This document shows, one piece after another, positions 12,218 through 13,874 of a stretch of 64,000 nucleotides of DNA. Positions within the stretch are counted from its first letter, which is position 1; each line of letters opens with the position of its first letter. This DNA comes from Ostrea edulis (Eukaryota). Below the pieces are notes generated by a model. It saw nothing but the letters and a program-made list of their open reading frames with translations. It had not been told where the DNA came from and did no database searches. The stretch lies in NCBI RefSeq assembly GCF_947568905.1, contig NC_079171.1, forward strand, positions 4,898,001-4,962,000. The letters run 5' to 3'. The position numbers were made by a program, and so were the translations under genes.

Positions 12218-13874
12218 ATGGCTGAATCTTTCTATACTTCATCGCCTTCAAGGACATTTGAAGATTTCGAGAAGGAGTGGTTAGATTTAGGAAAAGAGTT
12301 TGAGGTGGTGTTTGATTCGGGGTAAGTTCGTCTTCTTAAAATTCTTAACTCATTTAAAAATTACAAAGAACTGCGAACAATAGTTTTGTTCTCCCGCCTA
12401 CCTCCAAGTCAATTTACAGCGGTTAATACATTTGAATGAATTTTCATATTTCTTTAGATATTGATATGAATTTTGATAAAACATTACTTAGTTGGGAAAA
12501 CAAAGAGAAATAACTCTATTTTTTTTTTTCTCGAAGGGTTTACAACTAAATATTTCATATGCGTAAACCCGAAAGATTAAGGAACTTTTATCCATATCCA
12601 AGCATATTTTGAAATATGCGTACGCGTTCAAGCGCGATTTCAATGGAAAACGCCGTCTACCCCTCTATAAAAAAAAAAAGCTGATAACAAAAGTAATTAA
12701 CTATTTAACACTTGTATCAAAATTATTAATCAATTACCATTGAACCCTTCTTTGCATTAACCGGAGATTTTATGACCAAATCACAATTAGTATTGAATTA
12801 AATGGGTGTAAAATGTAGGCGGGGATCGAGAGTTAACGTGCGTAGTTGTTTATTCGCTTATTTCAAATTATTATATATTTGCTTTATTTTCTTTTTACCA
12901 AATGTCTTTAAATTTCTGTTTAACCAGGAATTCCCCCCAAGACCTCCAACTCACTGACCCAAGGGGGGAAAAGAGAAAACTGAGTGAGTCAGAGGACTCA
13001 ATAATTTTAACTCAAAGGTAAATTCTAAAGAATATTCTCTCTCTCTCTCTCTCTCTCTCGTTAATTTGTTTAAATTGTAAGCTTAACTTGTAAACTTTTT
13101 TTTAAAATTTGTATATTTTTTTAAAAAGGAAAATGGCAAAACAAATGCATGGTTTCACACAACAACAAAAAGAAGAGGATCCACGGCTGATAACATTTAG
13201 GTATAGTTGTTTTCATAAGTTAAATGTACCTGTCGGCCTTTGATACGAAAAAAAGAATGATACAATAATTATCTTGAAAACCGAATCACTCTATAGTTTA
13301 AAGTCTTAGAATTCAAATGTAGACCTCTATTTACCATTAAAGACTTAAACATTTCTTCTCACCATTTTCTTAACAGATTAGGTCTTAGTATGTTTATGTT
13401 TTGTTCTTTAATTACAGACGGGAAAACCCTAGAAATTATGAAGCCCTGGAAAAGAGAACTAGGACCAGGTCTACGTTCACCCTAGGATCGTTGACACCTA
13501 GATATATCTCAACAGTATCAGGATATACTCCAACCTCACCAGAATATGCTCCAGCCTCACCAGAATATACTCCAGCCTCACCAGAATATACTCCAGCGTG
13601 TCAAGGATCACCAGGATATGTCCCTGTGAAACAAGATCCTTTCCTTCCTTCACCTGATCACACCTTGACTCCACTTCAGGCTCCAATTATGAATACCGGA
13701 GCGTCATCAGGGTATGCTCCGGTGACATGCAGCCCTGCGTATGAAGACTCCCAATATCCTTTAAAAGAGGAGTTGGGAGCACTGTCCGAATTAATTAACT
13801 CTCTTCGAGTTGATCTCCTTCAAAGTTCCATGCTTGTGAACTATGTCCAAGATTACTTGAAAAAATGGAAGTAA
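12218..13874 (+). CDS. Spliced orphan accessory gene, about 240 aa, with Pol II CTD-like heptads; exons 12218-12321, 12928-13017, 13129-13200, 13418-13874
   Basis: Canonical GT-AG introns, all phase 2, and a 723-nt open join. TATA-like GATATAAATAG lies upstream. The last exon is homologous to the last exon of 45652-47382. Confidence 0.78.

Follow-up and report, generated by a model that had tools for sequence, protein, structure and literature searches.

A Maverick gene of the oyster Ostrea edulis may display RNA polymerase II tail-like words between two conserved helices

RPB1's C-terminal domain (CTD) is a disordered array of heptads of the type YSPTSPS (PF05001). Phosphorylation of Ser5 is described as recruiting the capping enzyme (PMC3335468). 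In yeast, the minimal CTD unit comprises two tyrosines spaced seven residues apart together with three Ser-Pro, and the insertion of a single residue between adjacent repeats is reported to be lethal (PMC6548728). The gene family of Ostrea edulis described here shares with the CTD Tyr1, Pro3, Ser5, Pro6, and mostly Ser or Thr at position 2, within a region that is likewise predicted to be disordered, and the 7-residue period is found in the copy studied and in several relatives. In contrast to the CTD, the family word is internal between two helices, occurs in 1–12 units (45 in the host tail), lacks Ser7, has Thr4 in no more than 10/28 units, follows no fixed period, and is absent from sister subfamilies.

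CTD-like words are also known from a protein that is not a polymerase: PIE-1 of Caenorhabditis elegans carries one non-phosphorylatable heptad in addition to zinc fingers. As P-TEFb decoys, both PIE-1 and synthetic CTD analogues bind to cyclin T1 and block elongation (PMC3745420), and PIE-1, Pgc, and Pem-1 block phosphorylation of Ser2 (bioRxiv 2021.07.12.452040). They are the closest working analogue of the oyster family, in which a CTD-like word also sits on a non-polymerase protein and is kept by selection. In contrast to PIE-1, the family offers multiple units with Ser5 retained, and these come from a mobile element; we claim no homology between the two. Nuclear viruses relying on host Pol II act on CTD kinases or on the CTD itself (PMC7070488). 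HSV ICP22, adenovirus E1A, the influenza polymerase, and the gammaherpesvirus TBP mimic act on P-TEFb or the CTD by binding the kinase or the CTD; none of the accounts found describes a viral protein with CTD-like repeats of its own. A full-text literature search, confined largely to open-access main texts and with PMC8502044, PMC8097293, PMC2689277, PMC10294476, and PMC7070488 among its sources, found CTD-like repeats described neither for a Maverick protein nor for any viral protein other than a polymerase; Repbase notes or paper supplements may list the ORF.

By definition, Mavericks duplicate 6 bp of their target site and have terminal inverted repeats (TIRs) that end in (AGT)2//(ACT)2 (PMC8097293). 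Adintoviruses/Polintons encode Oncoids, proteins with short linear motifs whose genes typically lie upstream of PolB (PMC8502044). The heptad gene is similar in position, being upstream of pPolB and outward-facing, and occupies the terminal outward place in four elements with core genes. However, what defines an Oncoid is an Rb-binding motif together with paired CXXC motifs, and the heptad protein has neither: LxCxE occurs 0 times in exon 4 of three copies (W, C, and E, see below), and no CXXC was seen on inspection of the 240-codon frame. In the main text of PMC8502044, neither CTD nor RNA polymerase is mentioned.

We analyzed a 64-kb stretch of Ostrea edulis DNA (the window) and its surroundings on contig C8. 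Here, the heptad gene is the last gene before the 165-bp TIR of an element that extends from C8:4891186 to window position 14573 and has AGTAGT/ACTACT ends. The features that delimit this element within the window are as follows.

1327..6018, minus strand: pPolB-like gene of the heptad element, in two ORFs (identity from translation, no Pfam scan)
14409..14573, no strand: 165-bp inverted repeat at the right terminus, which ends in ...ACTACT and matches the left one (C8:4891186-4891349) at 93%
14574..14579, no strand: 6-bp target-site duplication ATCGTC; the same 6 bases precede the left AGTAGT end

TIRs, ends, and target-site duplication are thus those of a Maverick. The pPolB, integrase, ATPase, protease, and major capsid protein genes all lie inside the element (tblastn with the window's own ORFs); Pfam rve scored above its cut-off, and DJR-like, Pox_A32, and Peptidase_C5 gave weak matches below theirs. 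The initial annotation had placed the heptads in a Maverick accessory gene, which is borne out by the TIRs, the 6-bp duplication, the core genes, and the terminal place. The PC4-like genes that it mentioned are also present in the same elements according to Pfam. Two of them encode a CARD fused to PC4 (20757-21770, minus strand, and 29203-30195, plus strand), both domains scoring above the Pfam cut-off, and the CARD-PC4 gene adjoins the integrase in every element of the group examined; a second, weak PC4-like ORF lies at 27967-28401. A gap of ∼230 bases between the two pPolB ORFs (window 2836-3066) recurs in every copy examined and is likely an intron in this core gene. A 252-codon ORF at 8669-9427 (minus strand) encodes ∼19 Thr-Pro-Val-Ser-Pro-Pro-Glu repeats and a hydrophobic end and is mucin-like; it has no Pfam match.

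The insertion of the heptad element splits the pPolB of an older Maverick (window 14574-22942 plus C8:4886942-4891184), with residues 1–355 and 355–502 lying on either side. Because a near-identical copy of the older Maverick at C8:25.58-25.59 Mb is uninterrupted, the order of events is fixed, the older Maverick having been there first. A third Maverick occupies window 27501-48244, with AGTAGT/ACTACT ends and the target-site duplication CTCGAT; the N-terminal part of its pPolB is split over two frames (37585-39120 and 39057-40580).

The heptad gene consists of four exons with GT-AG introns, all in phase 2, that join into one open frame of 240 codons.

12218..12321, plus strand: exon 1, with ATG at 12218, a family-conserved acidic-aromatic stretch, and a GT donor at 12322 in phase 2
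12928..13017, plus strand: exon 2, AG/GT bounded, with a basic cluster (KRKL) and, after it, an acidic Ser stretch
13129..13200, plus strand: exon 3, in which the conserved N-side helix begins; the NCBI model P0001 splices it to exons 2 and 4
13418..13874, plus strand: exon 4, with the N-side helix, a variable Pro/Ser/Thr linker containing the heptads, the C-terminal helix, and the stop at 13872-13874
13524..13607, plus strand: heptad array in exon 4, three Y-x-P-x-S-P-E units, then a degenerate one
13755..13871, plus strand: conserved C-terminal helix of 39 residues, pLDDT 91–98 in homologue models

A TATA-like TATAAA is found at 12155 and an ATTAAA at 14008. The Ostrea edulis protein P0001 in NCBI, automatically named RPB1-like, includes exon 2 and is identical over exons 2–4, which it joins in the same way; exon 2 is also matched in paralogues by tblastn. 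In the following, W denotes the window copy and A, C, D, and E other copies or elements, W and A being close kin. The donor of exon 1 is placed identically in C, D, and E, and splice sites fall in the same codons in D and E; the donor of exon 2 is missing in copy C. The exon 4 acceptor has the same codon phase in 11/15 loci with the N anchor found (10 by motif scan plus W). Among four sequencing runs compared, contigs of X1–X3 cover exon 4 and the heptads, and one contig of run X1 (guessed to be RNA, from a 90–95% relative) lacks intron 1. These contigs weakly suggest splicing in the family, rather than in W itself. In contrast to the intact vertebrate Mavericks, whose genes are described as being without introns (PMC8097293), the oyster heptad gene has three.

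The encoded protein is predicted to have helices at both ends and a disordered heptad linker. The acidic-aromatic stretch of exon 1 forms a predicted helix (residues 13–25 in the model of the homologue P0019), the KRKL cluster of exon 2 is likely a nuclear localization signal, and the hydrophobic spacing of the C-terminal helix is coiled-coil-like by inspection. In Pfam scans, neither exon 4 nor the full-length homologues matched a polymerase domain. A model with a short linker has no fold match in the PDB (Foldseek) and none under E 3 in BFVD; its best VIA match (Z 4.8) involves generic long helices. A sequence search of the PDB gave no match either, and the ESM Atlas returned nothing more than unnamed plant clusters (0.92, low recognition) and matches below 0.9. 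An RVxF-like site in W, considered as a conserved PP1-binding site, was rejected, being absent at that place in the seven other homologues scanned.

In W, positions 13524-13619 of the plus strand read YTPTSPE, YAPASPE, YTPASPE, YTPACQG, and SPGY in a single frame, that is, three clean heptads and a fourth unit with Cys-Gln at positions 5 and 6. The underlying period-21 tandem array (13519-13597) comprises 3.8 copies with 93% matches and a TRF score of 137, so frame translation and TRF together confirm the earlier reading of the heptads as a 21-bp tandem repeat. The other two plus-strand frames contain stops both before and after the array, and the three Y.P.SP matches of the whole 64-kb window in six frames all lie in it. 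Random 21-mers, when repeated, yield Y.P.SP in any frame in 46/200,000 cases, and random 7-mers with the composition of exon 4 itself do so in ∼1/1,000.

The host genome contains an RPB1-type tail, a 45-heptad array called RPB1 from its own sequence alone. A di-heptad DNA pattern gave 53 matches genome-wide, against 4 for the control; 40 of these lie in this tail, 12 in six loci of the family, and 1 in an unrelated ORF. The W array scores E 0.0037 and 17.9 bits with PF05001, below the cut-off of 20.3, and the paralogues C and E lie above it (38 bits, E 1e-9). The strict pattern YSPxSPxYSP is found 36 times in the host, three times in P0082, once each in A and C, and 0 times in W, which has one match if Thr2 is allowed. 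No unit among 28 in the family is the consensus heptad, although one unit of paralogue C is identical to a host unit; Ser7 is present in 28/45 host units.

The name RPB1-like would fit repeats captured as a piece of the host RPB1 gene, as would blastn matches to the host tail with 70–75% identity over 40–87 bases. However, this identity is about what shared Tyr, Pro, and Ser codons would give, and W is a 240-codon gene without the polymerase body of RPB1 or any domain of it. Furthermore, the Maverick units encode Ser5 solely by TCA/TCT and position 2 mostly by AGY/ACN; in the host, 26/46 units have AGY at Ser5, and Ser2 is mostly TCN. Since codon use thus differs from the host tail, a recent capture is unlikely; an ancient one would be compatible with 21-bp units. 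We regard capture from RPB1 overall as very improbable.

The family comprises 19 matches at 15 loci in the Ostrea edulis genome, 14 of them on contig C8, and two further genome queries added none. Contig C8 also holds most of the close minor-capsid matches, and loci there are often nested or adjacent. Four of the 15 loci (W included) occupy the same terminal, outward-facing place in elements with core genes, and 11 have no adjacent core Maverick module within the 10–20 kb examined; several loci contain stops or frameshifts. A profile search retrieved 40 proteins, of which 12 are named and the remainder unnamed or hypothetical; the named ones are 11 proteins from Ostrea, Crassostrea/Magallana, and Saccostrea and one low-complexity grass protein. 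A second search gave 76 cluster representatives, to which C. virginica was added separately. Full-length members share four blocks, namely the acidic-aromatic helix, the basic cluster with the acidic Ser stretch behind it, a pair of helices ahead of the linker, and a C-terminal helix of 35–39 residues, and the gene models of other oysters contain the same four. Domain and fold searches gave no fold or family match. Metagenome and viral contigs gave 70 and 38 pattern matches, none confirmed as related loci, and phage records no related loci. The grass protein P0039 and the plant matches of the ESM Atlas are hypothetical proteins of grasses and other plants with many Y-T-P-x-S-P units and without shown homology.

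The number of heptads per copy ranges from 1 to ∼12, so the heptads are not private to W, a point that the initial annotation had left to be checked. The exact 7-residue register that it reported is correct for the array of W, but not as a rule for the family, in which units are spaced by 7, 9, 12, 14, or 18 residues in different lineages. Sister rows differ in the number of words (6 versus 1 and 2 versus 1). In the tree on 51 columns by which gain and loss of the linker would be ordered, 14/21 inner branches lack support.

In two sister subfamilies, the gene has no heptad linker. The third Maverick of the window provides one example.

47167..47379, plus strand: likely orthologous last exon of the third Maverick (family profile E 6e-4, same acceptor context, terminal position)

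In this exon, the two helices are joined directly. The same linker-less terminal exon is found in a twin at C8:33.17 Mb and in two copies of a young subfamily that has ∼13 near-identical copies, with E-values from 3e-6 to 6e-4 against the family profile. The linker-less set thus covers 3/3 intact-looking ends examined from two sister subfamilies plus the third element of the window; two further elements showed no match to the gene in the stretch compared. Because sister subfamilies carry the gene without the linker, the heptads are an accessory module of one branch rather than part of the core function. The penultimate exon of the linker-less orthologues contains a lone Y-P-P-P-Q-P or Y-S-P-A word (window 46979-47005; joined position 15233-15253 of L120/L121), possibly reflecting the same constraint elsewhere, or chance.

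The two helices that flank the linker are under purifying selection. In 26/28 pairs of eight copies, pS is 0.66–0.98 and pN 0.14–0.32, and in the six pairs with computable dS, W-A apart, omega is 0.09–0.21. For the word itself, we cut 28 units from copies W, A, C, and E by the DNA period alone. Of these units, 25 have Tyr1, 23 have Ser or Thr at position 2, 26 have Pro3, 26 have Ser5, and 21 have Pro6. A, T, or V occupies position 4; at position 7, E occurs in 11 units, G in 6, K in 5, Q in 4, R and V in one each, and Ser in none. The suggestion that Glu7 acts as a phosphomimic therefore has to be given up, since Glu occurs in only 11/28 units and position 7 is not conserved. Between W, C, and E, positions 1, 3, 5, and 6 show a pS of 0.66 and a pN of 0.11, as against 0.77 and 0.39 for positions 2, 4, and 7. 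Tyr1 belongs to the positions under the strongest constraint (pN 0.06–0.08), and position 4 is the most variable (pN 0.47–0.71). The version of this comparison over eight elements is partly circular, the position table from motif-selected rows is circular and constitutes no evidence of constraint, and a Fisher test on allele counts (p 0.001) involves non-independent alleles and was not relied on. These substitution patterns indicate that the Y1/P3/S5/P6 word is kept by selection between elements, with positions 2, 4, and 7 drifting; amino acid constraint, which the initial annotation had made a condition of its reading, is thus found at Tyr1, Pro3, Ser5, and Pro6 at near-saturated synonymous sites.

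Y.P.SP occurs in 10–11 of 19 linker clusters (37 linkers) versus 0.2–0.4 in 3,000 shuffles, none of which equals the observed count, and 8–9 of the 19 clusters lack it. Several otherwise unrelated linkers without shared 4-mers keep a single copy. As the clusters are kin, this enrichment reflects retention rather than independent origin. Retention by descent alone would be expected if the linker were a neutral disordered spacer that arose when slippage multiplied a single ancestral 21-bp unit. The freely variable copy number, including the differences between sister rows, fits such a spacer, as do the thriving linker-less orthologues and the comparison of W with its closest paralogue A, where exon 4 differs by four synonymous and 19 non-synonymous codons and hence gives no recent purifying signal. 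However, the amino acids at the four kept positions are held while their synonymous sites are near-saturated, and lone words survive in linkers that share no 4-mers, which makes a neutral spacer improbable.

Two further alternatives accept selection on the word and assign it to other readers. The first sees in the word a phospho-switch or degron of the generic proline-directed kind (MAPK P-x-S-P, GSK3-primed/Fbw7-type S-P-x-x-T, or Pin1) that would set stability or activity, with an incidental likeness to the CTD. The arrays contain 3–10 P-x-[ST]-P and 4–9 [ST]-P-x-x-[STE] matches; the free spacing between units, the sufficiency of one copy in many lineages, and the looser position 2 relative to position 5 would all suit such a switch. 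Yet these patterns need no Tyr, whereas Tyr1 is tightly constrained here, four separate expansions (W/A, C/E, P0003, and P0042) all have the 7-residue period, and the di-heptad is nearly absent elsewhere in the genome; a switch of this kind is therefore somewhat unlikely. The second sees in it a tyrosine at which SH2-domain proteins or adaptors dock (STAT-type Y-x-P-Q or Y-x-x-hydrophobic), a docking that might, for example, damp host antiviral signaling. Position 4 is indeed V, I, L, F, or Q rather than Thr in several lineages, one of which reads YSPQ, YLPQ, and YHPQ. On the other hand, constraint on Ser5-Pro6 equals that on Tyr1-Pro3, SH2 specificity is set by position 4, the most variable one, and W has T or A there, so that we consider SH2 docking quite unlikely.

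We put at roughly 50% the probability that the heptad protein acts as a transcription regulator in the nucleus, where its CTD words of the Ser5-Pro type are offered to the CTD kinases and readers of the host. The disordered linker would display the selected Y-[S/T]-P-x-S-P word, which could serve both as a docking site and as a competing substrate for CTD kinases and for readers of phospho-Ser5-Pro. The KRKL cluster would direct nuclear import, self-association through the C-terminal helix would multiply the words, and CDK7 or CDK9 may phosphorylate the linker. Because related elements keep the key residues, the word would likely engage enzymes that read the host tail. No RNA polymerase gene is seen in the element, from which we infer that CTD kinases and capping or prolyl-isomerase factors may be redirected or titrated in favor of the element's genes. 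With Glu7 unconserved, unit length varied, W below the cut-offs, and sisters without a linker, the comparison suggests a selected, lineage-specific docking word between two conserved helices rather than a stand-in CTD. Only tentatively do we extend this to a free-standing mimic of the Pol II tail, apparently without RPB1 capture, in which an oligomeric nuclear protein, its heptad number and spacing repeatedly retuned, would compete for or recruit CDK7/CDK9 and capping factors.

If this holds, PIE-1 and other germline CTD decoys would have a virus-derived counterpart, of a kind that the literature search did not turn up for any virus or transposon. Viruses have been described that bind the Pol II tail or its kinases; an element that carries the word of the tail itself would reach that control point in a different way and would offer a first tangible way into the question of how Mavericks could steer host transcription. 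The family also explains oyster database entries wrongly named RPB1-like. Furthermore, it provides a natural series of 0, 1, and up to ∼12 units with periods of 7 to 18 residues in one conserved scaffold, which makes it testable which CTD readers need one word and which a di-heptad.

Two observations concern other sequences. In the window, 830-bp direct repeats of 99.6% identity flank the ORFs 53859-56099 and 56138-60205, and this region (52909-61050) is likely a young LTR retrotransposon. At C1:84946205-84949681 (L100:1206-4682, plus strand), an open frame of 1158 codons, with no Maverick gene within 20 kb, encodes ∼nine CTD-like heptads (PF05001 24 bits, above the cut-off) followed by very long Arg-Ser-Asp repeats; its N-terminal part matches once in the genome, and the frame represents a CTD-plus-RS combination outside RPB1.
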